This document shows positions 27,886 to 57,426 of a stretch of 64,000 nt of DNA, in pieces. Every line of letters begins with the position of its first letter. Position 1 is the stretch's first letter. A model generated the notes under the pieces. The model searched no databases. It saw only the letters and a program-made list of their open reading frames with translations, and was not told the origin of the DNA. Origin of the DNA: Desulfuromonadales bacterium (lineage in GTDB: Bacteria; Desulfobacterota; Desulfuromonadia; Desulfuromonadales; JACZKF01); the NCBI GenBank assembly GCA_029289095.1, contig JARFUG010000007.1, positions 9,297 to 73,296 on the forward strand, written 5' to 3'. The translations under genes and the position numbers were made by a program.

Positions 27886-29262
27886 ATGCTCAACGCCGAA
27901 GCGCCGTCCCATCGACTCCCCCCCCAGAGCCTGGAAGGGGAAATGTCCGTTCTCGGAGGCATTCTTCTGGAGAATGAGGCGTTGAACAAGGCTCTTGAGC
28001 TGCTGCGTCCCGAAGACTTCTATCGCGAAAGTCATCGCAAGATCTTCTCCGTTCTCATCGATCTCTCCGAGAAGAACGAACCCGCCGACCTGGTGACCCT
28101 CACCGCCGCCCTTCAGGCCCGAGGGGAGATCGACGCCGTCGGGGGGAGCGCCTATCTCGCCACCCTCGTCGACTACGTCCCCACTGCCGCAAACATCGTC
28201 TATTACTGCAAGCTCGTCAAAGAAAAGGCCCTCTCCCGGCAGCTTATCAGCGTCGCCACCGAGATCGCCACCCGCGGCTACTCTGGGGGAGATATCGAAC
28301 AGAATCTCGACTGGGCCGAAAAGTCGATTTTCGAGATTGCCGGGTCAAAGAGCCGCCCCTCTTATTTCTCCACCCGGGAAATTCTGAAAGACACCTTCAA
28401 AACGATCGAGAAGCTCTATGATCGGAAGGAACTCGTCACAGGGGTCCCGACCGGGTTCACCGACCTCGATCTGATGACGGCCGGCTTTCAGCCGAGCGAC
28501 CTCATCATCGTCGCGGCCCGCCCGTCCATGGGGAAGACGGCCTTTGCCCTCAACCTGGTCGAGAGCGCCTCGATTCATGCCGAAAAGCCCGTCCCTGCCC
28601 TGATTTTCTCCCTCGAGATGAGCAAGGAGCAGCTCGTTCAGCGTATGCTCTGCTCGGTGAGCAAGGTCGATGCCAGCCGGCTGCGCACCGGCCATCTGGG
28701 CGAGAGCGACTGGCCCAAGCTCACCAACGGCGCTGGACTCCTTTCCGAGGCTCAGATCTTCATCGACGACACCCCCGGAATCTCCATCCTCGAGGTCAGA
28801 GCCAAGGCGCGGCGCCTCAAGTCCGAAAAGGACCTGGGGATCATCGTCGTCGACTATCTGCAGCTCATGACCGGCCACAACGCCGAGAGCCGTCAGCAGG
28901 AGATCTCCGAAATCTCCCGCTCTCTGAAGGCCTTGGCCAAAGAGCTCAGTGTTCCGGTCATCGCTCTCTCCCAGCTTAATCGGTCGCTAGAAAACCGCAC
29001 CGACAAGCGACCCATCATGGCCGATCTTCGTGAATCAGGGGCTATCGAGCAGGATGCAGACGTCATCATGTTCGTCTACCGCGAATCGGTCTACTGCGAT
29101 GCTTGCAAGAAACGCGACGGTTCCTGCGACAAGGGGCATGAGAAGGATGCCGAAATCATCGTCGGCAAACAGCGCAACGGGCCAATCGGCGCCGTTCATC
29201 TGACCTTTCGCGGAGAGTTCACCCGCTTCGAGAACCAGAGCCGTCGAAAAGACGACTTCTGA
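27886..29262 (+). CDS. dnaB: Replicative DNA helicase DnaB
   Basis: PPQSLEGEMSVLGGILL N-terminal domain, Walker A ARPSMGKTAF, IVVDYLQLM, and SQLNRSLENR. The start is uncertain (27835 or 27886). Confidence 0.92.
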   Translation: MLNAEAPSHRLPPQSLEGEMSVLGGILLENEALNKALELLRPEDFYRESHRKIFSVLIDLSEKNEPADLVTLTAALQARGEIDAVGGSAYLATLVDYVPTAANIVYYCKLVKEKALSRQLISVATEIATRGYSGGDIEQNLDWAEKSIFEIAGSKSRPSYFSTREILKDTFKTIEKLYDRKELVTGVPTGFTDLDLMTAGFQPSDLIIVAARPSMGKTAFALNLVESASIHAEKPVPALIFSLEMSKEQLVQRMLCSVSKVDASRLRTGHLGESDWPKLTNGAGLLSEAQIFIDDTPGISILEVRAKARRLKSEKDLGIIVVDYLQLMTGHNAESRQQEISEISRSLKALAKELSVPVIALSQLNRSLENRTDKRPIMADLRESGAIEQDADVIMFVYRESVYCDACKKRDGSCDKGHEKDAEIIVGKQRNGPIGAVHLTFRGEFTRFENQSRRKDDF

Positions 29263-42396: not shown

Positions 42397-42855
42397 TCAG
42401 GTGCGCTCCAGCGCTTCCTTTCTCGGCAGGGTCTTTTGCGCATAGGACCAGATATTGAGCTGCTCCAGGGCGTAGAGCGCCAGACCTGCGAAAAAGACCC
42501 CCATGAAATGCCCCTCCAGGGCTCCTGCAAAGAGATAGAAGGGGTAGAAGACGGTTCGGAAGAAAAGGTGCAGCCAGTTCGATGACGGTTTCTGAGCGCC
42601 CGCGATGCGCCCCAGGATCAGTACGGCGGCAGAAAAGGTATAGGCGCCCACCGCGACGCTCGTCATGGCGACCGGGGGAGCCGCCCCCAGGATCATCCGG
42701 GCGCTTTCCCCCAAGGGGGCGAGCAGATCGGCCCCGCGGGAGAAGAAAAATATGGTGCTGACCAGCAGGAAAAGAGAGAGATCGCAAAGGCCCCGCCTGC
42801 ACAGGGCGTGGAGATCGGCGCCGGTCCTGTCGGTTGGATTCCTCTGGCGTTTCAT
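42397..42855 (-). CDS. Hypothetical 4-TM membrane protein; last gene of the cytochrome c/b operon
   Basis: 152 aa and hydrophobic. The gap to the cytochrome b gene is only 9 nt. Confidence 0.55.
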   Translation of the reverse strand: MKRQRNPTDRTGADLHALCRRGLCDLSLFLLVSTIFFFSRGADLLAPLGESARMILGAAPPVAMTSVAVGAYTFSAAVLILGRIAGAQKPSSNWLHLFFRTVFYPFYLFAGALEGHFMGVFFAGLALYALEQLNIWSYAQKTLPRKEALERT

Positions 42856-43554: not shown

Positions 43555-44607
43555 TTATCGTCGGTTCTTGCGGGTCAGAAATCGCAGCGTTCCGTGCCCC
43601 ACCGGCATGATCAGTCCGGCGGCCAGGATCGCCAGCCCGATATAGTTGAGGGTGGCGCTGCGGGTCGCTCCCACGATGTAGAAGTCGGGGGTCCCGTACA
43701 GGACATCGAGAACCGCCCCCTTCTCCACCGCAAGGCGTTCAAAGGAGCCGTCCTGGCGCGGGAAGGCGACGAAGCTCGTCTGCATCGCTCCGGGGCCGGA
43801 GGCGTGACAGAAGGTGCAGTCCCATCGGTTGGCGAGGATGCCGAAGTCGTGGGTGACGATCTCCGGAGTGAGCATCCCCTTGAGTCGCAGGTTGCGATTG
43901 TCCCTGTTGCGGTTGAAGCTCCGGAGCTCGGCCAGGGAGATGAAACCGTCGCCGTCGGTGTCGATCAGAGAAGAGATCTTCTCCTGCTCGCTCAAGAGTT
44001 TGAGATCTTCATATCCGGCGAGTTCAAAGGGGAGTCCCCGCGCCGGCGCTCCCGAGTCCGGGTGGAGCGGGCGTCGGGTGAGATACAGGGAGATGACGAT
44101 ATTCTCCGAGCCCGAATGGCAGGAGATGCACGGCAGCATCTCCAGGTGAAGAGCCGCCTGCGGCAGCCAGCTCCCATGGGAACGTACAAGGCCGGAGGTC
44201 TCGTGGCAGACGGCGCAGTTGCGGTTCATGTCGTGCCCGGAGATCGTCGTCGGCCCGCGCACGAGGTGGGGGTTGTGGCAGTCGCCGCAGTCGGCATATT
44301 GGGCGTGTCCGCTCTGGGCGTATTCTTCGTAGATGTCCTGATGGCAATCGAGGCAGCCGGCCCTGGACAGAGGCTGGCCGTCGTCGGGATGATCCCAGGT
44401 GACCGATTCGTGGCAGGCCACGCACCCCAGCCCCGCATGCGCGGTGGTGTCATAGCGCAAAGGATCGATCACGTAGGCGTCTCCCACCATCCCCGCATCG
44501 GCGTGACAGCTCACGCAGCTCTCGTCGTCCATCGCCGCCGTTTCAACCGGGGCGGCCAACCAGAGTGCCGCCAGCCCCAGAGAGAGAAATCCGATTTTGC
44601 GTCCCAT
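43555..44607 (-). CDS. Heptaheme c-type cytochrome with an internal EF-hand and a C-terminal TM anchor (CbcA-like)
   Basis: Signal peptide. Seven CXXCH motifs: CVSCH, CVACH, CLDCH, CGDCH, CAVCH, CISCH, CTFCH. DTDGDGFISLAE lies between hemes 6 and 7. C-terminal helix LNYIGLAILAAGLIMPV. Confidence 0.88.
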   Translation of the reverse strand: MGRKIGFLSLGLAALWLAAPVETAAMDDESCVSCHADAGMVGDAYVIDPLRYDTTAHAGLGCVACHESVTWDHPDDGQPLSRAGCLDCHQDIYEEYAQSGHAQYADCGDCHNPHLVRGPTTISGHDMNRNCAVCHETSGLVRSHGSWLPQAALHLEMLPCISCHSGSENIVISLYLTRRPLHPDSGAPARGLPFELAGYEDLKLLSEQEKISSLIDTDGDGFISLAELRSFNRNRDNRNLRLKGMLTPEIVTHDFGILANRWDCTFCHASGPGAMQTSFVAFPRQDGSFERLAVEKGAVLDVLYGTPDFYIVGATRSATLNYIGLAILAAGLIMPVGHGTLRFLTRKNRR

Positions 44608-44638: not shown

Positions 44639-44878
44639 TCAGCGCAGGGTCTGCCGGCACGACTCTTTCTTCCTCGTTGCGGACTCGCTCAGGAACTGCC
44701 AGAGGGCGACCAGGGCCGCATAGAGCTGCGCCACAACGATGATCGCGCAATACGCCAGGAAGAACTTGATGGTCAGTCCGCTGAAACCGTCCATGACGGT
44801 TCCTCCCGGGAAGGGGGTGAAGAAGAAAAATGCGAAGAGCAGCAGCATCATCCCTAGCCAGTAGATCTGTCGTTTCAT
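44639..44878 (-). CDS. Small two-TM membrane protein (79 aa)
   Basis: SD GAGGAG lies upstream. Hydrophobic segments WLGMMLLLFAFFFF and FFLAYCAIIVVAQLYAALVAL. Confidence 0.5.
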   Translation of the reverse strand: MKRQIYWLGMMLLLFAFFFFTPFPGGTVMDGFSGLTIKFFLAYCAIIVVAQLYAALVALWQFLSESATRKKESCRQTLR

Positions 44879-44956: not shown

Positions 44957-45199
44957 CTACTTGCGGGTGACCGATTCCACGGGAGCGAGCTCTTGGCTCT
45001 CCTGTTGCTGGCGTGCGGCCTTTCTGGCGCTGCGCAGAGCGGGGAGGACCTGGGCCAGAACGATCAGGGCGCAGAAGCCCAGAAAGATCAGAACGACCAG
45101 TGAACTGTTGTCCTTGCGCGCCTCGGCGGCGGCCAGGGCTGGGGAAGCCAGGGCCGAGAATGCGACTGCTGCGATGACTGCCGTCAACTTCTCTTTCAT
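44957..45199 (-). CDS. Small secreted/single-TM protein, family member A (80 aa)
   Basis: MKEKLTAVIAAVAFSALASPALAAAEA (signal peptide), then SSLVVLIFLGFCALIVLAQVLPAL. Its closest relative in the window is the ORF at 52531-52779. SD AAGGAG lies upstream. Confidence 0.65.
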   Translation of the reverse strand: MKEKLTAVIAAVAFSALASPALAAAEARKDNSSLVVLIFLGFCALIVLAQVLPALRSARKAARQQQESQELAPVESVTRK

Positions 45200-45225
45200 C
45201 TTTTTTCTCCTTTTGCGCATGGCGG

Positions 45226-45627
45226 TTAATGGATGCTCAGCACGTTTAGGACATTTCTGAAAGCGCATTCGACAGCGGTGCGGATTTCCTCGCCGTCGCG
45301 GGCGTTCACCGGTTTGAGGGAGTGATAGAAAATCCCTTCGCGGCGGATCTTCTGCATGATCGGAAGAGGTTTTTCATCGGAAACAAGGATGATGGTCAAA
45401 GACCGATCACACCTCTTCATCAAGGGGATAAGGTCCTCGGCGCCGACCTTCTCGTCGAAATCGCTCCCGACCAGCACGACATGGGGCTTGTTCTTCAGGA
45501 GGTCTCCCAGGACATCCACGGCCGAATCGGTGGTCCTCACCTCGTATCCTGCCCGGGAGAGAACATTTGCAATGAGCCTGCGGGTGGCGGTATCCCGGTC
45601 GGCCAGGAGAACGCTTTTCTCTTTCAT
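45226..45627 (-). CDS. Stand-alone receiver-fold protein lacking the phospho-acceptor Asp (pseudo-receiver), copy 1
   Basis: 133 aa. A gapless alignment to the canonical REC at 46095-47504 places Gly (VVLVGSD) where Asp (VIFLDVR) sits. The Ser/Thr (IILVS) and Lys (LKP) positions are retained. Confidence 0.75.
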   Translation of the reverse strand: MKEKSVLLADRDTATRRLIANVLSRAGYEVRTTDSAVDVLGDLLKNKPHVVLVGSDFDEKVGAEDLIPLMKRCDRSLTIILVSDEKPLPIMQKIRREGIFYHSLKPVNARDGEEIRTAVECAFRNVLNVLSIH

Positions 45628-45657
45628 GGCTGCCTCGCTTCGGCTTGCAGGGACCTC

Positions 45658-45894
45658 TCAACTCTCCTTGCCGGTGCGCACCTGCGCTTTTTTCCCGCGG
45701 AAGAATTCCCGCACCAGCGCACCGAAGAGCATCATCGCAGGGACGATCTGAAGGGCGATAATGGCGGCGATGAAAAGGAAGAAGATGGCGGGCATCAGAT
45801 TGCCCTCCCCTCCGACTCCCGCCAGGGAACCGAAGAAAATCGTTCCGTACGCGACCAGGGCGACGATGAAGCAACTGATGAATTTCTCTTTCAT
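45658..45894 (-). CDS. Small secreted/single-TM protein, family member B (78 aa)
   Basis: MKEKFISCFIVALVAYGTIFFGSLAGVGGEGNLMPAIFFLFIAAIIALQIVPAMMLF. Its closest relative is the ORF at 51812-52048. SD AAAGGAGGAAGG lies upstream. Confidence 0.65.
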   Translation of the reverse strand: MKEKFISCFIVALVAYGTIFFGSLAGVGGEGNLMPAIFFLFIAAIIALQIVPAMMLFGALVREFFRGKKAQVRTGKES

Positions 45895-45938: not shown

Positions 45939-45954
45939 GCAACGCCCGTACCCA
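45939..45954 (-). promoter_or_regulatory. Candidate sigma-54 promoter of the small-protein / pseudo-receiver / cytochrome c-b operon
   Basis: The minus strand reads GGGTAC-GGGCG-TTGCT. The invariant GG and GC are present with exact N10 spacing, and the TTGC -12 box is present. It lies 45 nt upstream of ATG 45894. Confidence 0.55.
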
Positions 45955-46046: not shown

Positions 46047-46087
46047 CCCACGGGAAAATTCCTGCCGGAGAGGAATTTTCCCGTGGG
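46047..46087. promoter_or_regulatory. 16-bp perfect inverted repeat (candidate enhancer-binding-protein UAS and/or terminator of the upstream activator gene)
   Basis: CCCACGGGAAAATTCC-N9-GGAATTTTCCCGTGGG. It sits 7 nt past the stop at 46095 and about 95-135 bp upstream of the -24 element at 45953. Confidence 0.6.
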
Positions 46088-46094
46088 ATGGGAA

Positions 46095-47504
46095 TCAGCC
46101 CGATCTCTCGATTCGGTGCTTTTTCAGCAACGCATAGAGGCGGGATTGGGAAAGGCCGGACAGACGACAGGCTTCGGGAATGTTCTCTTCAGCCAGCGCC
46201 ATCAATTCCTGCAGGTAATGCTTTTCAGCCTGGGTATAGACGTTGTCGCGATAATCCTGAAGCTTCGGGAGTCTCCTCAGGGGTTGTTCGGAAGCGGCTT
46301 CATCCGGAAGTGCATTCCGGCGCACCGAGTGGCGCATGATCTCGGCGCGGAAGGACGGAGGGAGGTGTTTGGGGTAGAGAGTCGGTTCGAAACGTGCTGC
46401 GGAAAAGGCGCGCACCAGGGTGTTCGCCAGTTCGCGCACATTGCCGGGCCAGTGATAGGTGAGCAGGGCGTCGAGGAATTCGGGGGAGAATCCTTTGGAC
46501 GCCACGCCGTCCCCCTCACAGAGCCGGTCGATATGGATCCTCGTCAGTTCCCGGATGTCCTCGGCGCGCTCGCGCAAGGGGGGGAGCTCGATGGTGAAGG
46601 AGCGGAGGCGAAAAAGCAGATCGCTGCGAAACAGATTCCTGGCCACCATATCGTCCAGGTCGCGGTTGGTCGCGGCCACCAGCCGGAAGTCGCTCTCGAC
46701 CTCGCGGGTGCTCCCCAGCGGACGGAAGCGCCTCTCCTGCAGAACCCGCAGGAACGTCTTCTGAACCGATAGAGGGAGTTCGCCGACTTCATCGAGAAAG
46801 AGGGTGCCGCCGTGCGCCTGCCGAACGAGACCTTCCTGCGGTTTTTCCGCGCCGGTGAACGACCCCTTCTCGTGGCCGAAGAGGAGGCTTTCGGCCAGTG
46901 TTTCGGGCAGGGCCGCGCAGTCGACGATGACGAAATTCTTTTCCGCCCGCGGGCTGTTGCGGTGAATCGCCTGGGCGAAGAGCTCTTTGCCCGTCCCCGT
47001 CTCACCGGTGATCAGAATGCTGGCATCGCTGGCCGCCGCCTGGGCGAGCAGATTCAGGCAGGCCTTGAGCTTGGGGCTGTTGCCGCAGATGTCCTCGCGC
47101 TTGAGCGCAACGATGTTCTGCCTTGGGTCGGACTTCTTCTCGCGGCGGTACTGCAGGGCGCGCTCCAGCGAAAGGGTGATCTCCTTGCTCGAGGAACCCT
47201 TCTCGATGTAGTCCCAGGCGCCCGATTTCATCGCCAACTCCGCCCCGTCCGGCTCGCCGAAGCCGGTGATGATGATCACCTCGGGGTTCGAGGCTGCCTG
47301 GGCGAGGCGCGGCAGCGCCTGCAGGCCGTTGCCGTCTGGCATGCGCACATCGAGAAAGATCACGTCGAAATCCTCCGAGGCGCTCTTCTCGAGCCCCTCG
47401 GTCAGGCACGACGCACTGGCCACCTCGTGCCCCAGGCGCGAAGCCATGAGGGAGAGCGACGAGACCATCAGATCATCGTCATCGATGATCAGCACCTTAG
47501 CCAT
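46095..47504 (-). CDS. Sigma-54-dependent response regulator (REC-AAA+-Fis HTH), activator 1
   Basis: REC domain (LIIDDDD...VIFLDVRMPDG), GETGTGKE, GSFTGA, and C-terminal HTH (IPEACRLSGLSQSRLYALLKK). Confidence 0.9.
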   Translation of the reverse strand: MAKVLIIDDDDLMVSSLSLMASRLGHEVASASCLTEGLEKSASEDFDVIFLDVRMPDGNGLQALPRLAQAASNPEVIIITGFGEPDGAELAMKSGAWDYIEKGSSSKEITLSLERALQYRREKKSDPRQNIVALKREDICGNSPKLKACLNLLAQAAASDASILITGETGTGKELFAQAIHRNSPRAEKNFVIVDCAALPETLAESLLFGHEKGSFTGAEKPQEGLVRQAHGGTLFLDEVGELPLSVQKTFLRVLQERRFRPLGSTREVESDFRLVAATNRDLDDMVARNLFRSDLLFRLRSFTIELPPLRERAEDIRELTRIHIDRLCEGDGVASKGFSPEFLDALLTYHWPGNVRELANTLVRAFSAARFEPTLYPKHLPPSFRAEIMRHSVRRNALPDEAASEQPLRRLPKLQDYRDNVYTQAEKHYLQELMALAEENIPEACRLSGLSQSRLYALLKKHRIERSG

Positions 47505-47561: not shown

Positions 47562-49937
47562 TCATCTGTCCTCTTTCCCGCTCTTCTCATTCCCCCCCCC
47601 GTCCAGAACGCGACGGATGATCCGCGCCATCTCGCTCCTTTCCGTCGGTTTCATGACGACCTCGCGGATGCCGATGGTGCGTGCGATCTTTTCGGTGACG
47701 CCGCTCTGGGAAAAGGAGCCCAGACCGGTGCAGAGGATGACGGGGATGTCGGGGCGCAGGGCGAGGACCTCCAGCGCAAACCTCTCTCCCGTCAGATGGG
47801 GCATTGTCTGGTCGGTGATGACGAGATCGAAGCGATCGGGCTGAGCCCGGAAGACTTCCAGGGCCTCCAGGCTGCTCGTCCCAGCGACGACTTCGTAACC
47901 GAGGTTCTCCAGCATCCGCTGGTTGGACGAGACGATATCGGCCTCATCGTCGAGAAACAGGATGCGCTCCTTCCCGCCGGGTGGCGGAGGCGATGCCGGA
48001 TACTCCTGCTCTGCGTCGCCTGCCGCATCACAGCGGGGCAGATAGACCCGGAAGGTCGTCCCCACCCCCGGTTCGCTGGTGACGTCGATCGCCCCGCCGT
48101 GGCTTCTGACGATGGCGTGGACCACCGAAAGGCCCAGGCCCGTTCCTCGCCCCGGCGCCTTGGTGGTGAAGAACGGGTCGAAGATGCGCTCCATCGTCTT
48201 TCGGTCCATCCCGTGCCCCGTGTCGGCAACGCTCAGACAGACGTAGCGCCCGGGGGGGAGCCCCATCGAGTTGTCGCTCCCCAGATCGCTGTTGCCCATG
48301 AAGATTTCGAGTCGCCCCCCATGCTCCTGCATGGCGTCGGCGGCGTTGGTGCACAGGTTCATGATGACCTGGTGGATCTGCGAGGTGTCGGCGTGGACGA
48401 AGCCGATCCCGTTGGTCCGGTGCAGAGGGATCTCGATCGTCGTCGGGAGGGAGGCTCGCAGCAGCTTCAGACACTCCCTGGCGATCAGATCGATGCGTAC
48501 CGGCTGACGCTCCTCTTCCTTCTGGTAGCTCAGGGTGAGGATCTGGCGCACGAGACTCCTGGCCCGGAACCCCGCCTTCAGAACGATTGCCAGATGCTCC
48601 CGCAGCGCCGAGCCTTCCGGGGCGTCATCCATCGCCATTTCGGTGTTGGTGATGATGGCTGCCAGGATGTTGTTGAAGTCGTGGGCGATCCCTCCGGCGA
48701 GCGTCGCGATCGCCTCCACCTTCTGGGCCTGGCAGAGCTGCCTTTCGAGCTGGACTTCGTAGGTGAGATCCCTCACGACGGCGGCGTAGGCCGTCGTCCC
48801 CGATGGTTCGCTCACCGGCGAGACTTTTACCTCGATGTCGTACAGGGTTCCGTCATTCCGGCGGTTCGCCAGGCGTTCGAAGCGACTCTGTCCGGTGTGG
48901 ACAGCATCGCTCATGATCTGGAAAAAGGATCTGTTCGTCCCGACCTTCTCGACATTGCGCACGTTTCTTCCAATCAGCTCTTCCCGGCCGTACCCGCTGA
49001 TCGTTTCGAAAGCCGGGTTGACGTAGTGAATGAACCCTGCGGTATTGAAGGTGAGGATGCCGTCGGTTTCCTGCTCGACGATCGTCGCCAGCAGGGTCCT
49101 CTCCCTTTGCGTGCGCTCCTTGTCGCGGCGCATCCGCAGCGTGGCGATGCCGTAGGCGAGATCGTCGGCAAGCCCCTTGAGGAGATCGAGTTCCCGACCG
49201 TCGAAGGCGTCGGGCTCGCCGGCGAAGATGACCAGAGCGCCGATGACCCGGGCCTCGATGCTCAACGGGAGTGAGGCCGATGATGCGTAACCGAGCCGCA
49301 GGGCCTTTTCGCGCCATGGCCCCCACTTCCTGTCGGTTAGTATATGGCGTGCGATGTGCGGCTCCGCCGAGCGGATGGCGTGGCCGGTCGGTCCCTGGCC
49401 CAGTTCGTCGTCTCCCCACGAGACGCGGATCGATTCGAGGTATCCGTGCTCGTCCCCCCATTGAGCCGCAGGTCGGACGGTCTTCTGGGCGTCGTTTTCG
49501 GCCAGTCCGACCCAGGCCAGGCGATATCCCCCCGACTCGACGATGATGCGGCATACATCGGTCATCAGGGCCTGCTCGCTTTCGGCGCGCACAACGAGCT
49601 GACTGCAGTCGCTGCGCGCCTTCAGTGCGCGATTGACCCGGTGAAGCGTCTGCTGAGAGGCGAGGAAGTTATTTTCCGTATTGCGGATCAGGTAAAACAG
49701 GAAGCCGCCGGTGAAGATCAGGCCGGCATAGCACAGGATGTATTCTGCCCGGCGAACGCTTTCCGACAGGATGAGCCACTCCGAAAAGAAAAAGAGGGTG
49801 GAGAAGATCCAGACGGCTGCGATCAGGAGGTAGATCGTGGTAATCGGAAGAGTGTCGGCCCTCGCCTGGAGTTGCATGCTCACCTGCTCAGTCGACGTCA
49901 GTTGGTATTTCCCCGACCCGCAACCCTGCAAAGACAA
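47562..49937 (-). CDS. Hybrid sensor histidine kinase (TM-GAF-PAS-HisKA-HATPase-REC)
   Basis: N-terminal TM helices, a GAF-like region, PAS domain (ETDGILTFNTAGFIHYVNPAF), H-box GGIAHDFNN, G-boxes DTGHGM / GTGLGL, and C-terminal REC (ILFLDDE...LVITDQTMP). The start is uncertain (49937 or 49877). Confidence 0.88.
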   Translation of the reverse strand: MSLQGCGSGKYQLTSTEQVSMQLQARADTLPITTIYLLIAAVWIFSTLFFFSEWLILSESVRRAEYILCYAGLIFTGGFLFYLIRNTENNFLASQQTLHRVNRALKARSDCSQLVVRAESEQALMTDVCRIIVESGGYRLAWVGLAENDAQKTVRPAAQWGDEHGYLESIRVSWGDDELGQGPTGHAIRSAEPHIARHILTDRKWGPWREKALRLGYASSASLPLSIEARVIGALVIFAGEPDAFDGRELDLLKGLADDLAYGIATLRMRRDKERTQRERTLLATIVEQETDGILTFNTAGFIHYVNPAFETISGYGREELIGRNVRNVEKVGTNRSFFQIMSDAVHTGQSRFERLANRRNDGTLYDIEVKVSPVSEPSGTTAYAAVVRDLTYEVQLERQLCQAQKVEAIATLAGGIAHDFNNILAAIITNTEMAMDDAPEGSALREHLAIVLKAGFRARSLVRQILTLSYQKEEERQPVRIDLIARECLKLLRASLPTTIEIPLHRTNGIGFVHADTSQIHQVIMNLCTNAADAMQEHGGRLEIFMGNSDLGSDNSMGLPPGRYVCLSVADTGHGMDRKTMERIFDPFFTTKAPGRGTGLGLSVVHAIVRSHGGAIDVTSEPGVGTTFRVYLPRCDAAGDAEQEYPASPPPPGGKERILFLDDEADIVSSNQRMLENLGYEVVAGTSSLEALEVFRAQPDRFDLVITDQTMPHLTGERFALEVLALRPDIPVILCTGLGSFSQSGVTEKIARTIGIREVVMKPTERSEMARIIRRVLDGGGNEKSGKEDR

Positions 49938-49986: not shown

Positions 49987-51399
49987 TTACGAAGTCGGGC
50001 CTTCGCGTCCGGAGATCCCCTGTTTTTTCAGCAAAGCCTGAAAGTTGGGGCGCAGCATGCCGACTTCCTTGGCCGCCCGGGTGACGCTCCAGTCGTTGCG
50101 GTTGAGCGCCTCCAGCAGGAAGGCCCGCTCCAGCGATTCCACCGCACGCACGCGCAACTGGCGTTTTTTGAGTTTGAGCTCTTCATGGCTGTGGGGGATG
50201 TGATCGAGCGGGGAGGCCCTTTCCTCCCCCGGGGGGTGCAGTTCGAGATCTTCGCGCTGGATGAATTCCTCCTCGGTCAGGACGACCGCCCTCTCGATGA
50301 GGTTCTCGAGCTCCCGGACATTGCCGGGGAAGTGGTAATTCTCGAGCATCCTGAGAGCTTCGGGGGCGATCCCCTTGATTTCCTTGCCGAGCTCCTCGGC
50401 GAAGTGCTTGATGAAATGCGCCGTGAGCAGGCGCAGGTCCCCCGATCTCTCGCGAAGCGGAGGCAGGTCTATGGGGATGATGTTGAGGCGGAAAAAGAGA
50501 TCGTCCCGAAATTTCCCTTCGGCGACGAGGTCCCGCAGGTTGCGGTTGGTGGCCGCCACGAGGCGGATGTTGATCGGAACGGGTTGCGTCCCCCCGATGG
50601 GGGTCACCTCGCGCTCCTGAAGCACTCGCAGCAGCTTGGCCTGGGTGGTGAGACTGATGTTGGCGACCTCGTCGAGAAAGAGGGTGCCGTTGTCGGCGAT
50701 CTTGAACAGGCCGGACTTGGTCTGGACCGCTCCGGTGAAGGAGCCCTTGACGTGGCCGAAGAGTTCGCTCTCGAGCAGGTTCTCCACCAGTGAGGTGCAG
50801 TCGACGGCGACAAAGGGGTAATCGCGCCTTGCGCTGTTGCGATGGATCGCCTGGGCGACGAGTTCCTTGCCCGTTCCGCTTTCGCCGGTGATCAGCACGG
50901 TGCTGTCGGTCGGGGCCACCTGCAGGATGCGCCGGTAGACTCGCTCCATCTCGCGGCTGGCGCCGATGAAGCGGTCGAATCCCTTGAAGTCCCTCAGCTC
51001 TTTTCTGATGTAGATGTCGTCGAGGAGGATGACCTTCTGCTCCAGCGCCGACTGAACCTTCTCGGCGATCTCCTCGGGAGTGAAGGGCTTGGCGATGTAG
51101 TCGACGGCGCCGTTCTTCATCGCCTCGACTGCCGTGTCGACCGTCGAGTACCCCGTGATCATGATGATCGGGACTTCGGGCTGGGTGGTTTTGATGTGTT
51201 TCAGAACTTCGATGCCGCTCATGCCGGGCATCTTCAGGTCGGTAATGACCAGGCCGAACTGCTGCGTGGTCATTCTTTCAACAGCCAGCGCGCCGCTGGC
51301 GAACAGTTCGACCGAATATCCCCTCCCCTCGAGGATGCGCCGCAGTCCCTGCCGGATCACGGCATCGTCATCAACAACCAGAATGTTGAGCTTTTCCAT
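49987..51399 (-). CDS. Sigma-54-dependent response regulator (REC-AAA+-Fis HTH), activator 2
   Basis: [12 protein letters not shown]...[24 protein letters not shown], and C-terminal HTH ([21 protein letters not shown]). SD GAGGAG lies upstream of ATG 51399. Confidence 0.9.
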
Positions 51400-51707
51400 C
51401 CGGCAGGCTCCTCGTATAGGTGCAAACAGTGCAAACAAAATCCCTCTAGAAACAATTTAATTGTGCCTAATGCAGTCTAATGTAGCAATTTTTGCGAGTC
51501 AAGGGATAAAAGCCGCTTCCCTGGGGGTGTATAGCAGAATCATACACTGTCGAAAGAGGAATGGAAGCATAGAAAAAACGTGCAGATGCACATTTTTCCG
51601 CGATTCCCGCCGGCCTTCGCTTCTGACGGGGGTGCACAAATTTTTTATACGTTCCAGAGGGCAACGCGACGAGAGCGAAAGTTCTTCTGGCCGGAATAAG
51701 CTCGTAA

Positions 51708-51737: not shown

Positions 51738-51753
51738 TGGCACGCCCTCTGCA
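51738..51753 (+). promoter_or_regulatory. Sigma-54 promoter of the small-protein / pseudo-receiver / c3-FeS-NrfD operon
   Basis: TGGCACG-CCCT-CTGCA with exact GG-N10-GC spacing, 60 nt upstream of ATG 51812. Confidence 0.7.
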
Positions 51754-51811: not shown

Positions 51812-52048
51812 ATGAAAAACATCCTCAAGGCAGCCCTCGTCGTTGTACTGAGCAGCTCGACCGCTTTCGCGGCAGGAGCGGGGCAGGGCGAAGGTCTCAG
51901 CACCCTGACCATCCTCTTTCTCGTCTTCGGAGCCACCATCCTCGTCTTTCAACTCGTTCCCGGGATCGCTCTTTTCGTCTCCATGATCCGGGGGCTTTTC
52001 TCGCGCAAGGAGGCTATCGACGCGGTGAATGCGGGCGAAAAAAATTAG
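51812..52048 (+). CDS. Small secreted/single-TM protein, family member C (78 aa)
   Basis: MKNILKAALVVVLSSSTAFAAGAGQGEGLSTLTILFLVFGATILVFQLVPGIALF. SD AGGAGG lies upstream. The longer track ORF (51725) would include the promoter, so it was rejected. Confidence 0.65.
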   Translation: MKNILKAALVVVLSSSTAFAAGAGQGEGLSTLTILFLVFGATILVFQLVPGIALFVSMIRGLFSRKEAIDAVNAGEKN

Positions 52049-52530: not shown

Positions 52531-52779
52531 ATGAAAAAGCCCGCAACGCCCCTCATGACTGTCTGCATGCTCCTGGCGGCAGCCCCCGCATTTGCCGTCG
52601 ACACGACCCAGGTTTACAGCAGCGGCATTCTGGTCCTCGTATTTCTCGGGATCTGCGCCCTGTTCGTCGTCTCTCAACTGATTCCCGCCATGATGATGCT
52701 TTTGGGGATGGTCAAGGGGGTCTTCAAAGGCAAGAGGATCGAAGCGGTCGCCGAGGCCGAGAAGAAGAATCTGGGCTGA
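52531..52779 (+). CDS. Small secreted/single-TM protein, family member D (82 aa)
   Basis: MKKPATPLMTVCMLLAAAPAFAVDT (signal peptide), then SSGILVLVFLGICALFVVSQLIPAMMM. SD AAAGGAG lies upstream of ATG 52531. Confidence 0.65.
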   Translation: MKKPATPLMTVCMLLAAAPAFAVDTTQVYSSGILVLVFLGICALFVVSQLIPAMMMLLGMVKGVFKGKRIEAVAEAEKKNLG

Positions 52780-52818
52780 GTGCAGCAACCGACGTTCACA
52801 CCTAAGGGAGGTTTCTCC

Positions 52819-52998
52819 ATGGATGCCATCATGTCGCGGTTTTTAAACTCGGTCGGTGAATACAAGAGCGTCTACACCCTGGTCGACTTCTACCAGTACA
52901 TCAAGGGGGTGGAATACCTCCTGATCGTCGCTTTCTTCATCGTCTTTGTGAAGTATTTCAAATATATCGACGCGCCGCAGCAGAAGAAGGAGCACTGA
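52819..52998 (+). CDS. Small single-TM membrane protein (59 aa)
   Basis: SD AAGGGAGG lies upstream of ATG 52819. Hydrophobic helix YLLIVAFFIVFV. It occupies the same operon position as the ORF at 44639-44878. Confidence 0.45.
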   Translation: MDAIMSRFLNSVGEYKSVYTLVDFYQYIKGVEYLLIVAFFIVFVKYFKYIDAPQQKKEH

Positions 52999-53045
52999 GG
53001 CCGCGGCGCTTCAGACGTTTACTCACAAGCGGAGGAGAGATCGCA

Positions 53046-53534
53046 ATGCATACAAAACGCAAATGGTTGGTTGGCGCAATCGTTCTGGCCGCCCTCTGGA
53101 GCGCCCCTCTCGAGGAAGGTGCAGCGCAGGATTTTCCCGAATTCATCGAACTGGATTCCCTGAGTGATCTCTACGGTCCGGTCCCCTTCGATCATCTGAT
53201 GCACCTCGATTTCGGGAGCTGCGCCGATTGCCACCATCACGGCACGGGCGTTCCGGTGCAGGATGCAAACTGCGCCCGCTGTCACAGCAACGCAGAGACG
53301 GTGCCGATCATCAGTTGCAAAGAGTGCCACGCACGCGATCCCTTCTCAGCCACGGATATCCGGGAGAAAGAGGCAGATCTCCACCTCTATCATCGCGACA
53401 AGCCGGGGCTGAAGGGGGCCTATCACCTGAGCTGTCTCGGATGCCACGAAGAAATGGGCGCCCCGACCGGGTGCAACGACTGTCACGTCAGGACCAAGGC
53501 GGGCGAGGCCTTCTTCCGGGGCGGCCCCCGGTGA
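53046..53534 (+). CDS. Periplasmic c3-type (class III) multiheme cytochrome, five CXXCH motifs
   Basis: Signal peptide, then CADCH, CARCH, CKECH, CLGCH and CNDCH within 162 aa. Confidence 0.85.
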   Translation: MHTKRKWLVGAIVLAALWSAPLEEGAAQDFPEFIELDSLSDLYGPVPFDHLMHLDFGSCADCHHHGTGVPVQDANCARCHSNAETVPIISCKECHARDPFSATDIREKEADLHLYHRDKPGLKGAYHLSCLGCHEEMGAPTGCNDCHVRTKAGEAFFRGGPR

Positions 53535-53617
53535 TCGGCTGGGCAGGGGAGCGCCGGCACCGAGCGTGAATCCGGCGGTTTGCGCAAGCGACTCGAAATA
53601 GAGCGAGGAGATAGATC

Positions 53618-54553
53618 ATGAAAGGAATCAGTCGAAGAAGGTTTCTGGCGGCTAGTCTGGCCGGAGGCGCGGCGACAACGCTGAGCGTGACGAAGGAAGC
53701 CTGGGGAGCCTCTTCGTTTGACGGCTACCCGGACGGAATGGGGGTCCTGGTCGATCTGACCCGGTGCGTGGGGTGCCGCTCCTGCGAGGCGGCCTGCAAC
53801 AAGGAGCAGAATCTTGCCGCTCCGGCCGAGCCCTTTGACGATATGTCGATCTACGACAAGCGCTTTCACGGGCAGAAGCGCCGCACCGACGAAAACTCCT
53901 ATACCGTGGTGAACCGCTACGAGAAGGACGGAGCCAAACCGGTCTATCGCAAGATCCAGTGCAACCACTGCAACGAGCCGGCATGCCTGACCTCCTGCTT
54001 CACCAGCGCCTACAAGAAGACAAAAGAAGGGGCGGTCACCTACAACTCAAAGGTCTGCGTCGGCTGCCGCAACTGCATGGTCGCCTGCCCCTTCGCGATC
54101 CCGGCCTACAGTTACTCGAGCGCCTTCAACCCCGAGATCAAAAAATGCGTCTTCTGCCACGAGACCCGGCTCAAGAACGGACAGCCCCCGGCGTGCGTCG
54201 ATGCGTGCCCCCAGGAGGTGATGACCTTCGGAAGGCGAAGAGACCTGATCAAGATCGCCAACGACCGGATCCGCACCCGGCCGGGACGCTATGTCGACCA
54301 CATCTACGGTGAGCACGAGGTCGGCGGCACAGCCTGGCTCTATCTTTCGGATCGCCCCTTCGAGGAGGTCGGTTTCGACACTACGCTGAGCAAGGAGCCG
54401 ATCATCTCCAACGTCAAGGGATTTCTCTCGACGGTGCCGATGGTCCTGGCCATCTGGCCGGCCCTTTTCACCGGATTCCATCTGCTGTCCAAGAAGCAGG
54501 ACCACGGACACGGAGAGCACGCCCACTCGGCGCAGGAGGAGGACGAAAAATGA
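53618..54553 (+). CDS. Tat-exported 4x[4Fe-4S] ferredoxin subunit (NrfC/HybA/PsrB-like) with C-terminal TM anchor and His-rich tail
   Basis: Twin-arginine signal SRRRFLAAS. Cys clusters CVGCRSCEAAC, CNHCNEPAC, CVGCRNCMVACP and CVFC...CVDACP. Helix VPMVLAIWPALFTGF. Tail DHGHGEHAH. Confidence 0.85.
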   Translation: MKGISRRRFLAASLAGGAATTLSVTKEAWGASSFDGYPDGMGVLVDLTRCVGCRSCEAACNKEQNLAAPAEPFDDMSIYDKRFHGQKRRTDENSYTVVNRYEKDGAKPVYRKIQCNHCNEPACLTSCFTSAYKKTKEGAVTYNSKVCVGCRNCMVACPFAIPAYSYSSAFNPEIKKCVFCHETRLKNGQPPACVDACPQEVMTFGRRRDLIKIANDRIRTRPGRYVDHIYGEHEVGGTAWLYLSDRPFEEVGFDTTLSKEPIISNVKGFLSTVPMVLAIWPALFTGFHLLSKKQDHGHGEHAHSAQEEDEK

Positions 54554-55899
54554 AACGGCACATTATGCATGGCGGCAAAATCGTCGATTCCGAGTACAAG
54601 TCCGAGGAGAACGAGGCGAAGAAAAAGTGGAGCCTCATGGAGAAGCTCCTTCTCGGCCTGACGCCGCGCCAGTACCTGGCCCAGGCGATACGAAATCCGT
54701 TCAACTGGATCCTGGCGGCGATCTTCGCCATCGGAATCCCTCTGATCCTCGGCCGGTTCGTCTTCGGACTGCACTGGATCACCCACAGCTCCAACGATTA
54801 TCCCTGGGGCCTGATCCTCGCCTTCGGACTTTTCACCATGGTGCCGCTGTCGGCCTCGGGGTTCATGCTCGGCACGGCGGTGGAGATCTTCGGCCGCCAC
54901 GACTTCCACCCCATCGAGCGCCTGGCTCTGCTCAACGGCCTGCTCGGTTACTTCTTCGCCGTCATCTTCCTGATGGTCGACCTCGGACAGCCTTGGCGTC
55001 TGCCCTACCCGATGGTCGTCTCCTTCGGAACGGCCGCCGTCCTCTTCCTCGTCGCCTGGCACGTCGCCACCTACCTCTCGGTGCAGATCGCCGAGGTCTC
55101 GGTCTCCTTCTTCGAGTGGATCGGCTGGCCGCAGGGGGCGAAGTTCATCCGCAAGATCATCGTCGGGCTGACCGTGGCGGGGATCATCCTCTCCACCCTG
55201 CACCAGGGCGCCCTGGGCGCGCTCTTCACCTACGCCCACGGCAAGCTTCACCCCCTGTGGTACTACGCCTCATTTCAGTGGATCTACTTCTTCTGCTCCG
55301 CCATCCCCGCCGGCCTGTGCATGGTCATTGCGGTGAGCACCATCGTAAAGAAGACAATGGCCTGGCGCTGCGACGACAACTTCATGGACAACCTCGATTC
55401 GCTCACCCTGAAGCTGGCCAAGGGCGCGAGCCTGGGTCTGATCACCTACCTGGCCATCAAGATGATCGGGGTCGCCCATTACAACCTGTGGGGTTATCTG
55501 GCCACCGGTTGGGGGCAGTGGTACCTGCTCGAGATGTTTGTCGGCGTCGTGCTCCCCATCGCCCTGTTCGGCTACGCTCTGCGGCACAACAAGGCGGGGC
55601 TCGCCCGGTTCACCGCATTCCTGACGATCTTCGGCGTCGCGCTGAACCGGATCAACACCAGCCTGATCGCCTACAATTACAAGATCTATCACGAGATCCC
55701 TCACTGGCGTGAAGTCATCGTGACCCTGACGATCTTCGCCATCTACATCGTGGTCTACCGCTTCATCCTCTACCGTCTGCCGATCCTCTACACCTGGAAG
55801 ACGGCGCCGCAGACCGCCGAAGAAACGGTCGAAGAGCCGGTCTACATCCACTCGGGAGCGGAGCCGAGGCCGGTCAGCATGTATCGGGAAATGAAATGA
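54550..55899 (+). CDS. NrfD/PsrC-family polytopic quinol-interacting membrane subunit
   Basis: 449 aa with about 10 TM helices. The start overlaps the FeS-subunit stop (ATGA), the typical partner arrangement for NrfC-like proteins. Confidence 0.8.
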   Translation: MKRHIMHGGKIVDSEYKSEENEAKKKWSLMEKLLLGLTPRQYLAQAIRNPFNWILAAIFAIGIPLILGRFVFGLHWITHSSNDYPWGLILAFGLFTMVPLSASGFMLGTAVEIFGRHDFHPIERLALLNGLLGYFFAVIFLMVDLGQPWRLPYPMVVSFGTAAVLFLVAWHVATYLSVQIAEVSVSFFEWIGWPQGAKFIRKIIVGLTVAGIILSTLHQGALGALFTYAHGKLHPLWYYASFQWIYFFCSAIPAGLCMVIAVSTIVKKTMAWRCDDNFMDNLDSLTLKLAKGASLGLITYLAIKMIGVAHYNLWGYLATGWGQWYLLEMFVGVVLPIALFGYALRHNKAGLARFTAFLTIFGVALNRINTSLIAYNYKIYHEIPHWREVIVTLTIFAIYIVVYRFILYRLPILYTWKTAPQTAEETVEEPVYIHSGAEPRPVSMYREMK

Positions 55900-55984
55900 G
55901 ACAGTCCATCGCCGGCGGGTTCGCCCCGCCGGCGGATCGCAGCGACAAGGGCCTGATCACGGAAACCGGAAAAGGAGCTGGGCT

Positions 55985-56863
55985 ATGTTACGGAACCTGA
56001 CGGCAAGGGCGATCGTCCCCGTGGCCATGACTGTGACTGGATTCGTCCTGGTCTGCTGCATCCTCCTGTACGCCGTCATCAAGGGGGACATGACCCGCAG
56101 CACGATCCAGCATTCGGTGAGTCTGGCCGACACCGTCATGAAGTCGACCCATTACGCCATGCTGCGCGACGACCGCGAGAGTCTCGGCAACATTATCGTC
56201 AACATCGGCGAGCAGCAGGGGATCAAACACCTCAGGATCTTCGACAAGGCGGGAATCGTGCGCTTCTCTCACCACCCCGAAGACAACGGTCACGAGGTCG
56301 ACATGACCTTCTCCGGATGCCTGGGGTGTCATATGGAGCCCGTGCCCAAGGAGACCCTCGAGGCGATGCAGCAGGCGCGCAAGTTCAGCGCCGAAGACGG
56401 CAGCCATGTCCTGGCCATCACCGCCCCCATCTACAACCAGCCGGTCTGTTTCGCCGGGGACTGCCACGCCCATCCCCCCGAACAGCAGATCCTCGGCATC
56501 CTCGACATCGGCCTCGATCTCACCCCGCTCGAGCGCAACCTCGCCGAGATGCGCGGCCGCATGGCCGTCTTCACGGTGATGGTTCTGCTCCTCACCCTGG
56601 GGGGCGTTGCGGCCCTGCTGCGCAGGAGCGTGATTCTGCCGATTCAGACCCTGGCCGTCTTTACGGAGCGCGCACTTAATGATACTGTTGTGGGTGAGTT
56701 CCCTCACAAGGAAGGGGAGATCGCCGAAATCGCCGCCAACGTCAAACGGCTGCACTTCCGGCTGGTCGAATCGGACAAGGAGTTGGCCCGCAGGCGAAGA
56801 GGGCCGCAGCAGGGCTCGGGGGCGGGCAGCGAGTCCGAAGGCGGTGACACTCGACACGAGTAG
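55985..56863 (+). CDS. Membrane sensor-like protein: TM, periplasmic heme-c domain, TM, HAMP; no output domain
   Basis: TM1 is IVPVAMTVTGFVLVCCILLYAVI. The periplasmic region has CLGCH and CFAGDCH (CX4CH). TM2 is MAVFTVMVLLLTLGGVAALL. A HAMP-like segment follows (ILPIQTLAVFTERA...EGEIAEIAANVKRL), then a short low-complexity tail. Confidence 0.65.
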   Translation: MLRNLTARAIVPVAMTVTGFVLVCCILLYAVIKGDMTRSTIQHSVSLADTVMKSTHYAMLRDDRESLGNIIVNIGEQQGIKHLRIFDKAGIVRFSHHPEDNGHEVDMTFSGCLGCHMEPVPKETLEAMQQARKFSAEDGSHVLAITAPIYNQPVCFAGDCHAHPPEQQILGILDIGLDLTPLERNLAEMRGRMAVFTVMVLLLTLGGVAALLRRSVILPIQTLAVFTERALNDTVVGEFPHKEGEIAEIAANVKRLHFRLVESDKELARRRRGPQQGSGAGSESEGGDTRHE

Positions 56864-56880
56864 GCCGGAAGCGAGTCCCC

Positions 56881-57426
56881 ATGGCGATCCCGAGAAAAAA
56901 AAAGGGGCGGGACGGGATCTCTCCCCGTGAAGAGCTGATAGAGAAGATCCGTCGTCTCGAATCGCGCGCCGCCCGGGGGCTCTGGGCCATGGCCGGCTTC
57001 ATGGCGATGAGCATCGCCGCCTGGCGCTATCCCGACCCCTTCTCACATCTACCCGAGCGGGCGGCGGCCATCCTCGGCGCCCCCCCGCCCACGGGACTGA
57101 TCAGCGCCGCCCTGATCGTCTATATCTTCTCCGCCATCATCCTCATCCTCACCCGCATGGCGACCGGCGCCGAGGCGGGGGTCGGCTTCAACCACGTCGG
57201 CTACCTGACCGGATTCTACTTCTTCTATTCGGTGGCCGGCGCCATGGGGGAGAACTTCTGGGCCGTCCTCGTGGCCGGGATCACCATCCTTTCCCTGCAG
57301 AGCTACCATCTGTGGACGTATTGCGCCGAACAGGTGCGCAACGACAAAGAGACCCTCGCCGCCCTCGAGCGCAAGGAAAAGTTCGCTTCGCTCTACTCGC
57401 CCGAGTCCCGGGAAGGCGAACCGTAG
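56881..57426 (+). CDS. Hypothetical 4-TM membrane protein; last gene of the c3-FeS-NrfD operon
   Basis: 181 aa with a hydrophobic core and charged termini. It lies 17 nt after the preceding gene. Confidence 0.5.
   Translation: MAIPRKKKGRDGISPREELIEKIRRLESRAARGLWAMAGFMAMSIAAWRYPDPFSHLPERAAAILGAPPPTGLISAALIVYIFSAIILILTRMATGAEAGVGFNHVGYLTGFYFFYSVAGAMGENFWAVLVAGITILSLQSYHLWTYCAEQVRNDKETLAALERKEKFASLYSPESREGEP

Follow-up and report, generated by a model that had tools for sequence, protein, structure and literature searches.

Paired small membrane proteins bracket an aspartate-less receiver at the head of predicted quinol oxidoreductase operons in Desulfuromonadales

The 64,000-nucleotide stretch of a Desulfuromonadales genome analysed here (assembly GCA_029289095.1, contig JARFUG010000007.1, positions 9,297 to 73,296 of the forward strand; hereafter the window) contains, between 42.8 and 57.4 kb, two operons that diverge from a central block of regulatory genes. 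Each opens with a gene for a small membrane protein, followed by a gene for a single-domain receiver and a gene for a second small membrane protein. A first-pass annotation, made from the sequence alone, had described a family of four such proteins, A to D. A profile hidden Markov model (HMM) built from the family and searched over the whole window returns exactly five members there and none elsewhere in it: A to D are genuine, and a fifth paralogue, E (44639-44878), had been overlooked. The aspartate-less receiver in the middle of each module and the predicted sigma-54 promoters of both modules were likewise absent from that annotation. The genes of the two modules are as follows, numbers beginning with L denoting loci that were fetched for context.

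45658..45894, - strand: B, type-1 small membrane protein, 78 residues; open reading frame (ORF) with Shine-Dalgarno sequence, family HMM E 9e-20, exact public gene call P0003; opening gene of a cbcBA-type operon, with orthologues in L003, L005 and L058
45226..45627, - strand: REC1, single-domain aspartate-less receiver between B and A, 133 residues; PF00072 at 37.1 bits against a cut-off of 30.2
44957..45199, - strand: A, type-2 small membrane protein of the A subtype, 80 residues; ORF with Shine-Dalgarno sequence, family HMM E 3e-22
44639..44878, - strand: E, fifth family member, of a third subtype, 79 residues; family HMM E 3e-24
51812..52048, + strand: C, type-1 small membrane protein, 78 residues; ORF with Shine-Dalgarno sequence, family HMM E 2e-20, public gene call P0004
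52100..52486, + strand: REC2, single-domain aspartate-less receiver, 128 residues; PF00072 at 39.7 bits against a cut-off of 30.2
52531..52779, + strand: D, type-2 small membrane protein of the D subtype, 82 residues; ORF with Shine-Dalgarno sequence, family HMM E 2e-32

The four ORFs first proposed lie where they had been placed and encode 80 (A), 78 (B), 78 (C) and 82 (D) residues, and it is correct that a longest-ORF listing over-extends them, to 103, 107, 107 and 157 residues, respectively. Each has its own GGAGG/AGGAG-type Shine-Dalgarno sequence 6-9 nt before the proposed ATG, and the proposed sequences of B, C, D and E coincide exactly with public gene calls (P0003, P0004, P0001 and P0002); the 80-residue form of A is absent from the protein collection that was searched. 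Because the four ORFs are short, hydrophobic and without a Pfam or NCBIfam model, they might be taken for chance open frames that resemble one another through hydrophobic composition. Our data refute this explanation, to which we assign next to no probability. In Smith-Waterman comparisons all six pairs among A-D score at z 4.4-9.0 against shuffles that kept the signal, linker, transmembrane and tail segments, only 0-1 of 1000 shuffles reaching the observed score, and E resembles A and D at z ~7 by the same segment-preserving procedure. The likeness therefore goes beyond generic transmembrane composition. There are, moreover, hundreds of homologues of the same length, and the median ratio of nonsynonymous to synonymous substitution rates (dN/dS) is 0.136 over 335 close pairs, indicating purifying selection; for the window genes against their nearest orthologues it is 0.19-0.43, with dS near saturation. 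No variation is seen in columns S31, G32, F38, G40, A43, Q49 and P52, the ORFs have Shine-Dalgarno sequences, and transcription of the operon-position counterparts has been published.

The profile search proposed with the first-pass annotation recovers the family in protein collections, and homologues prove plentiful. The five-protein profile finds 220 clusters (90% identity) among ~5.8 billion proteins, all of 71-113 residues, without a Pfam domain and, where named, called "hypothetical"; a HMMER scan of 1.84 billion cluster representatives (50% identity) finds 673 clusters at E<=1e-3 and 252 at E<=1e-10; and a pattern scan of one genome per species finds at least 325 loci, 78 of which were fetched for context. 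Named loci are almost all from Desulfuromonadales, and the fetched ones are mostly from Geobacteraceae, Desulfuromusa, Pelovirga, Geopsychrobacteraceae, Malonomonas and unclassified Desulfuromonadales, a few records being labelled otherwise. Pfam and NCBIfam scans of A-E at E<=1 match no model beyond sub-threshold noise (DUF7937, DUF6332, YbgE), and a Foldseek search of the AlphaFold2 (AF2) model of D against the PDB gives no match. The family is thus unannotated as far as domain models go, although its members do appear in public genomes as "hypothetical protein". A-E belong to a conserved family of predicted inner-membrane proteins of ~75-85 residues that is almost confined to Desulfuromonadales. 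One divergent homologue, P0334, lies on a 2-kb contig and offers no useful context.

The 188 members collected across 80 loci sort into two types, type-1 (B and C in the window) and type-2 (A and D), whose profiles are homologous to each other (hhalign probability 99.5%, E 2e-23). The pairing of B with C and of A with D by operon position is not peculiar to the window: in ~80 loci type-1 invariably comes first and type-2 second, whether or not a receiver is present. Members share one plan, in which a signal-peptide-like N-terminus ending in AxA is followed by ~10 exposed residues, one long hydrophobic helix that carries an invariant Gln and, three residues later, a near-invariant Pro, and a basic tail. 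The core L/I-x-F-L-x-F-x-A-x-I-x-x-x-Q-x-x-P that had been read from four sequences is borne out, the Q..P pair being present in 184 of the 188 members; the Gln that had been described as buried is positioned near the cytoplasmic end of the helix, not in mid-membrane. The type-1 consensus reads ..SAFAAG..GxGEGsLLlsLFIGFFALIIVFQLVPA..GLF. Type-2 is near-fixed from AxA onward, as PAFA/VDTxKVYNSGILVLxFLGFCALVVVxQLIPA (the slash marks the cleavage-like site), with S31, G32, L34, V35, F38, G40, A43, L44, V47, Q49 and P52 invariant in 26 diverse members, whereas its N-terminal hydrophobic stretch varies freely. The cleavage-like sites PAFA/VDT (type-2) and SAFA/AG (type-1) are conserved behind a variable h-region, as in the signal-peptide-like architecture that had been proposed; in B the site is reduced to a weak S-L-A, and E lacks one. 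The proteins may instead remain uncleaved and form a two-helix hairpin. The AF2 model of D consists of a short N-terminal helix, a loop and a long helix spanning residues 29-80, with a predicted local distance difference test score (pLDDT) of 83-91 over residues 31-60.

A motif classifier divides type-2 further. The A subtype (..REDNSSLVVWIFLGFCALIVVAQLLPAIRNAR..), in which the polar tail begins immediately after the Pro, stands upstream of cbcA in all 7 instances, separated from it by no more than one other gene of the family (E-type or type-1), and the D subtype precedes an HmcD-like gene in 36 cases and nothing recognisable in 47. E-type proteins, which keep the Gln and lack the Pro (Q-L-Y-A in place of Q-x-x-P), are always encoded between A and cbcA and occur in just three places, the window and the two loci most closely related to it, L005 and L058. 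One gene (L010, 5752-5979) is chimeric, joining a type-1 N-terminal part as far as QLVPA to a type-2 C-terminal part AVLALFGMTKAVAQGSRKTAAAKN, and looks like a recombinant of adjacent paralogues at the shared motif.

The protein usually encoded between the pair is a receiver that has lost its phosphoacceptor. Aligned with Spo0F and CheY, REC1 has Gly and REC2 Ser at the acceptor position, and the same position is Gly (68) or Ser (52) in 120 of the 120 best homologues, the homologues as a whole forming 1291 clusters. Among the remaining signature residues the Lys persists, Ser mostly replaces the Thr, and the acidic pair is reduced to its first member; elsewhere in the window, the receiver domains of the hybrid kinase and of the two sigma-54 activators do have the Asp. 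The protein shows strong conservation: REC2 shares 71-90% identity with homologues from metagenome-assembled genomes and from named species of Geotalea and Geobacter. Aspartate-less receivers (ALR) have been defined as PF00072 domains without the phosphorylation-site Asp and make up ~2% of PF00072 domains (J Bacteriol 2025, PMC12632262); as read from their sequences, REC1 and REC2 are members of the ALR class by that definition. The predicted fold is canonical, the closest structures being the single-domain Spo0F and DivK (Foldseek TM-scores 0.85-0.9). The possibility that these receivers are recent copies of those of the neighbouring activators was considered and rejected, REC2 being only 23% identical to that of its neighbour, REC1 showing no significant similarity to that of its own, and the alpha-1 residues being dissimilar.

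Natural fusions, which are classical evidence that two proteins act together, connect the receiver with the second small protein. Continuous receiver::type-2 ORFs of 217-245 residues occur in L019, L022, L037, L060 and L073, and in a library of cluster representatives three further fusion clusters with mutual identity below 50% were found (P0251, P0258, P0280). In the five loci the order is receiver, linker, hydrophobic segment, AxA site and complete type-2 mature region; a few fused variants (L022, P0251) do have Asp at the acceptor position, without the acidic DD pair. The AF2 model of P0258 comprises a (beta-alpha)5 receiver (pLDDT 91-95) that superposes on Spo0F and DivK, a helix at 133-151, a loop, and a long helix at 167-218 (pLDDT ~90). 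The fusions support a topology in which the first hydrophobic segment runs from N-in to C-out and the type-2 helix from N-out to C-in. In six related Desulfuromusa loci (L035, L041, L046, L063, L069 and L074) receivers of 149-161 residues carry a truncated remnant of the fusion linker; the type-2 gene is separate there and begins after a non-coding gap of ~500 nt, an arrangement suggestive of receiver::type-2 fusions that have decayed.

The central block of the window holds the regulatory genes, and predicted control elements lie between these and the modules.

45939..45953, - strand: predicted sigma-54 -24/-12 element GGGTAC-N5-TTGC, ~45-60 nt 5' of B; score 8/10 at the position typical of the family; GGGTACGGGCGTTGC
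46052..46082, - strand: inverted repeat GGGAAAATTCCT / AGGAATTTTCCC, candidate enhancer site, from the sequence, for the same-strand sigma-54 activator
46095..47504, - strand: sigma-54-dependent response regulator directly 5' of B, 469 residues; Response_reg, Sigma54_activat and AAA_lid_14
47562..49937, - strand: hybrid histidine kinase, GAF-PAS-HisKA-HATPase-REC (by Pfam) after two N-terminal transmembrane helices (read from the translation) that are joined by a ~8-residue loop, with no periplasmic domain
49987..51438, - strand: second sigma-54-dependent response regulator, BccR-like by Pfam and by its layout divergent from C, like that of bccR in L081
51527..51547, + strand: palindrome GTGTAT-N9-ATACAC, candidate enhancer site, from the sequence; GTGTATAGCAGAATCATACAC
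51738..51752, + strand: predicted sigma-54 -24/-12 element TGGCAC-N5-CTGC, 60-74 nt 5' of C; score 9/10 at the distance typical of the family; TGGCACGCCCTCTGC

Predicted sigma-54 elements were recognised by GG at -24 and GC at -12 with 10-nt spacing, closeness to TGGCAC-N5-TTGC, and conserved position. Such an element, TGGCAC-N5-xTGC, lies ~70-75 nt 5' of the type-1 ATG and scores at least 8/10 in 65 of 90 upstream regions, compared with 6.7% of random windows. About 115 nt further 5', the palindrome GTAT-N9-ATAC is present in 54 of 82 type-1 upstream regions (background, 2.9%), with a second copy in 15. It is found in L081, in L079, in trios and in stand-alone pairs, and modules standing alone keep both the palindrome and the predicted sigma-54 element. 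Promoters of the B type (the window, L005 and L058) have GGAA-N-TTCC inverted repeats in place of GTAT-N9-ATAC, those of the window (46052-46082) lying just 3' of the same-strand activator gene, and this difference in upstream repeats suggests that two classes of activator drive the two modules. In G. sulfurreducens the sigma-54 activator BccR is required for induction of the cbcBA operon, which is expressed only at low redox potential and then at more than 12,000 reads per kilobase per million (bioRxiv 10.1101/2021.04.15.440034), and GSU0597, GSU0596 and GSU3489 are coordinately regulated in transcriptomes (PMC10599522). By their shared upstream elements, we infer that the stand-alone pairs belong to a BccR-type regulon.

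Downstream of the modules lie two different sets of enzyme genes.

43555..44607, - strand: CbcA-like cytochrome c with seven CXXCH, 350 residues; cytochrome c Pfam matches, with the length and position of cbcA in L081
42865..43542, - strand: CbcB-like dihaem cytochrome b, 225 residues; PF01292 E 7e-28
52780-52998, + strand (likely start 52820): HmcD-like small protein; weak NF045712 match, E 0.006
53046-53534, + strand: 5-CXXCH cytochrome c (Pfam/NCBIfam)
53618-54553, + strand: 4Fe-4S protein exported by the twin-arginine (TAT) route (Pfam/NCBIfam)
54550-55899, + strand: large membrane protein, 449 residues; no Pfam match at E<=0.001, as is also the case for its 464-residue counterpart in L079, and the label NrfD is unconfirmed
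55985-56863, + strand: p292, haem-sensor-like
56881-57426, + strand: p181, multi-transmembrane protein, last gene of the second operon; weak Yip1-like match in L081

Intergenic gaps in these operons are short (26-78 nt), and downstream of D the second operon spans 52780..57426 (+). Its enzyme genes agree in composition with the published description of Cbc4/CbcSTU (10.1101/2025.04.14.648717). The HmcD-like protein is of a kind distinct from A-E, and its counterpart in L079 matches PF28260 (DVU_0533). On this reading of the genes, the modules head operons for quinol:cytochrome-c oxidoreductases, in the window one predicted to be of the CbcBA type and one Cbc4-like.

When the window proteins were placed on the 78 fetched loci by tblastn, the modules were found in four settings. 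At ~25 loci an activator gene, type-1, receiver and type-2 genes are followed by genes for the HmcD-like protein, the cytochrome, the FeS protein, the membrane protein, p292 and p181. In a second setting the type-1, receiver and type-2(A) genes, with E as an optional addition, precede cbcA and cbcB; this arrangement is complete in L003, L052 and L067, and in L005 and L058 the contig ends after E. The third setting comprises trios with none of these enzymes nearby, and the fourth receiver-less type-1/type-2 pairs among unrelated neighbours, for example in Desulfuromusa kysingii and Geobacter sp. DSM 9736. Neighbours of the stand-alone modules are functionally diverse (LysE-like exporter, ThyX-like, MBL-fold and permease-like proteins), and when the ORFs within 5 kb of these modules were clustered no recurrent functional partner emerged, only local synteny among close relatives. 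Loci of the Desulfuromusa type have an additional type-2 gene immediately before the oxidoreductase genes, and some genomes carry several near-identical sets, up to three or more (L010, L039). Two Geobacter loci differ at one syntenic position. In G. hydrogenophilus (L081) the order is HAMP kinase, divergent bccR-like activator, type-1, receiver, type-2(A), cbcA, cbcB, cytochrome, p282, p185 and thiSG; in Geobacter sp. DSM 9736 (L079) the flanks are the same and a cassette of HmcD-like, cytochrome, FeS and membrane protein genes replaces cbcA-cbcB. Thus, the enzyme cassette appears to be exchangeable within a constant chassis consisting of kinase, divergent sigma-54 activator, type-1, receiver and type-2, and then p292, p181 and thiSG, a chassis of which the trio is part.

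The cbcBA operon of G. sulfurreducens has been described as encoding a hypothetical protein, a response receiver, a second hypothetical protein, CbcA with 7 haems, and CbcB (Joshi, Chan and Bond, bioRxiv 10.1101/2021.04.15.440034), and the window shows the same five-gene layout with a predicted sigma-54 promoter ahead and a BccR-type activator beside it. B, REC1, A, (E), CbcA and CbcB give the ordered pair with its receiver and a GG-N10-GC element ahead of cbcA-cbcB, and C, REC2 and D form the same front end with a different enzyme behind. From operon layout, together with the congeneric L081, whose counterparts are a 79-residue type-1 and a 76-residue type-2 protein bearing the family motifs, the A/B-type proteins would correspond to GSU0597 and GSU3489, which flank GSU0596. 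Compared with G. sulfurreducens, the window has a duplicated module, one copy of which precedes a different, Cbc4-like oxidoreductase, and an additional paralogue, the fifth; beside its cbcBA copy the activator gene shares the strand of the module and is not divergent from it. The G. sulfurreducens counterparts are listed in the literature merely as hypothetical or inner-membrane proteins, GSU0596 is termed a response regulator with no mention of the absent Asp (bioRxiv 10.1101/2021.04.15.440034), and the published account of cbcBA does not describe paired paralogues, an aspartate-less receiver, fusions or stand-alone copies. Searching the literature for the locus tags and for the concepts involved turned up no study of what these proteins do. 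Their existence is therefore known, as published "hypothetical" genes, whereas the family, the pairing, the pseudo-receiver and the fusions are not recognised in the literature we found.

Overall, we believe that type-1, type-2 and the pseudo-receiver may constitute a non-catalytic, membrane-tethered adaptor that connects a sigma-54/two-component circuit to quinol oxidoreductases, a tentative reading to which we give a probability of roughly 0.4: the anatomy of the module is solid, and its function is deduced from it. The fixed order of the pair, the missing Asp of the receiver and the receiver::type-2 fusions argue for an adaptor, and the exchange of cassettes, together with stand-alone modules that keep their promoter elements, ties it to regulation and not to one enzyme. 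Consider, for example, how such a device might work. After cleavage of the signal peptides, type-1 and type-2 would form an N-out/C-in heterodimer, held by the membrane-embedded Gln and a small-residue (Gly/Ala/Ser) helix face; helices that combine a strongly polar Gln in apolar surroundings with a face of Gly, Ala and Ser are textbook candidates for association with one another. The cytoplasmic juxtamembrane tails would dock the aspartate-less receiver, and the resulting trio, devoid of catalytic residues and induced by a BccR-type sigma-54/two-component system, would couple that circuit to the oxidoreductase encoded downstream. It could do so by feedback, the pseudo-receiver occupying a membrane kinase as a non-phosphorylatable partner (compare the binding of kinases by DivK), or it could report or gate the activity of the oxidoreductase complex. 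Contact of the small proteins with the hybrid kinase or with the cytochrome b and "NrfD" subunits, as suggested with the first-pass annotation, stands as a proposal. A more specific version, in which the heterodimer senses the quinone-pool state, or how the adjacent quinol oxidoreductase turns over, through its conserved intramembrane Gln, Pro and Cys and its periplasmic N-terminus, and sequesters or releases the pseudo-receiver to tune the kinase/BccR circuit, we regard as unlikely at present.

Several observations weigh against the adaptor. The type-2 subtype tracks the enzyme downstream (A with cbcA, n=7; D with the HmcD-like gene, 36), which would also fit a role as a subunit or in assembly. 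Pairs that stand alone and have no receiver imply that the pair can function where no receiver gene accompanies it, and multiple sets per genome (L010 and L039), coupled with very high expression, suggest a stoichiometric or structural role. In addition, the 23% identity of REC2 and the dissimilar alpha-1 residues leave unsupported the idea of a decoy that shares the kinase specificity of the activators.

The most serious competitor draws on the first of these points. The small proteins might be accessory or assembly subunits of the Cbc quinol:cytochrome-c oxidoreductases, comparable to HmcD, CydX or CcoQ, with the receiver a separate regulatory passenger. Single-transmembrane subunits are common in respiratory complexes; the small proteins head both oxidoreductase operons, with gaps of only 26-78 nt, their type-2 subtype co-varies with the enzyme, and the extra type-2 gene of Desulfuromusa-type loci directly precedes the oxidoreductase genes. 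Even the stand-alone pairs could be accommodated, insofar as their shared promoter architecture would allow co-induction in trans. Against this, the 5-10 kb around many pairs and trios contain no oxidoreductase, one and the same type-1/receiver set precedes enzymes of two unrelated types at a single syntenic position, and recurrent fusion to a signalling domain would be unexpected for the subunit of a redox complex. A-E do resemble HmcD, CydX, CcoQ and NapE/TorE in size, membrane location and encoding within oxidoreductase operons, but differ from such single-transmembrane subunits in that their relatives also occur far from any oxidoreductase gene. None of the HmcD, NapE/TorE, CcoQ and CydX models matches A-E; the HmcD models NF045712 and PF28260 give no match at E<=1, and the weak match belongs to the ORF at 52780-52998 and its L079 counterpart, so that the operon already has an HmcD-like protein of its own. 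We consider a subunit role improbable overall, if the first alternative to be kept in mind.

We are more doubtful still that the pair is an autonomous, sigma-54-controlled membrane effector of energy-limited cells with no specific link to Cbc enzymes, sensing or stabilising the membrane or the proton-motive force in the manner of PspB/PspC or PspG. In the phage-shock system, the products of a sigma-54-dependent operon include two small single-pass inner-membrane proteins, PspB and PspC, which influence a sigma-54 activator by way of a soluble partner, and the parallel gains from the predicted sigma-54 promoter and palindrome that stand-alone pairs carry for themselves and from the several near-identical sets per genome. 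What counts against it is the tight linkage to Cbc operons in the fetched loci of Geobacteraceae and unclassified Desulfuromonadales, where the type-2 subtype follows the enzyme, the lack of evidence for a membrane-stress stimulus, and the result that the Pfam models of PspA, PspB, PspC and PspG do not match A-E at E<=1. The likeness to PspB/PspC (with PspA and PspF) is therefore one of function only, with no sequence relationship. Unlike type-1 and type-2, PspB and PspC are not paralogous to one another; they lack a cleavable signal peptide, and their soluble partner is PspA, whereas here it has the receiver fold.

Returning to the adaptor, its closest parallels include MgrB, SafA and MzrA, tiny bitopic proteins that belong to the regulon of the two-component system on which they feed back. 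The adjacent hybrid kinase, with two transmembrane helices and no periplasmic domain, invites this comparison, but MgrB, SafA and MzrA act singly and directly on the kinase, and have no pseudo-receiver partner. Within the ALR literature found (PMC12632262 and related work), there is no account of such a receiver flanked by two small bitopic membrane proteins or joined to them by fusion. A paralogous bitopic pair with an ALR behind a predicted sigma-54 promoter would be a variant within the small membrane-protein modulators and pseudo-receiver adaptors.

Regardless of the specific mechanism, three genes at the head of cbcBA-type operons that had been passed over as "hypothetical" or "response receiver" form a conserved trio, which is reused before different oxidoreductases and retains one promoter architecture even where it stands alone. 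To our knowledge, how these bacteria sense the redox potential of their electron acceptor and switch between inner-membrane pathways is not understood. In this context, the trio offers candidates, small and open to genetic analysis, for the regulatory or gating layer still missing from the picture of Geobacter respiration, and if it were a sensing device it would help Geobacter-type bacteria to choose a respiratory pathway according to the redox potential of the acceptor. GTAT-N9-ATAC and the sigma-54 element together supply a motif set for mapping the regulon, and the new family merits a database model.

Other features of the two operons touch on the same circuitry. p292 is a membrane protein with a periplasmic CXXCH and a C-x4-CH motif and without a kinase domain. 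Over residues 27-223 it shares 31% identity (E 2e-29) with the sensor region of a HAMP histidine kinase, the one encoded beside bccR in G. hydrogenophilus (L081, 5114-6745), the similarity including both Cys motifs. By this comparison p292 resembles a haem-based sensor copied without its kinase part, and its gene lies inside the regulated operon. A paralogue of p181, 37% identical, lies at 42397-42855 (-), just 3' of the cbcB-like gene, so that both operons close with the same kind of membrane protein. Residues ~213-231 of the CbcA-like cytochrome, DTDGDGFISLAELRSF, match an EF-hand model below its threshold (PF13202, 22.4 bits; cut-off 25.9), which is unexpected in a periplasmic multihaem protein. 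Finally, two more close matches to the sigma-54 consensus occur in the window, at 20716-20730 (-), TGGCACCCTACTTGC, and at 28661-28675 (-), TGGCATCGACCTTGC.

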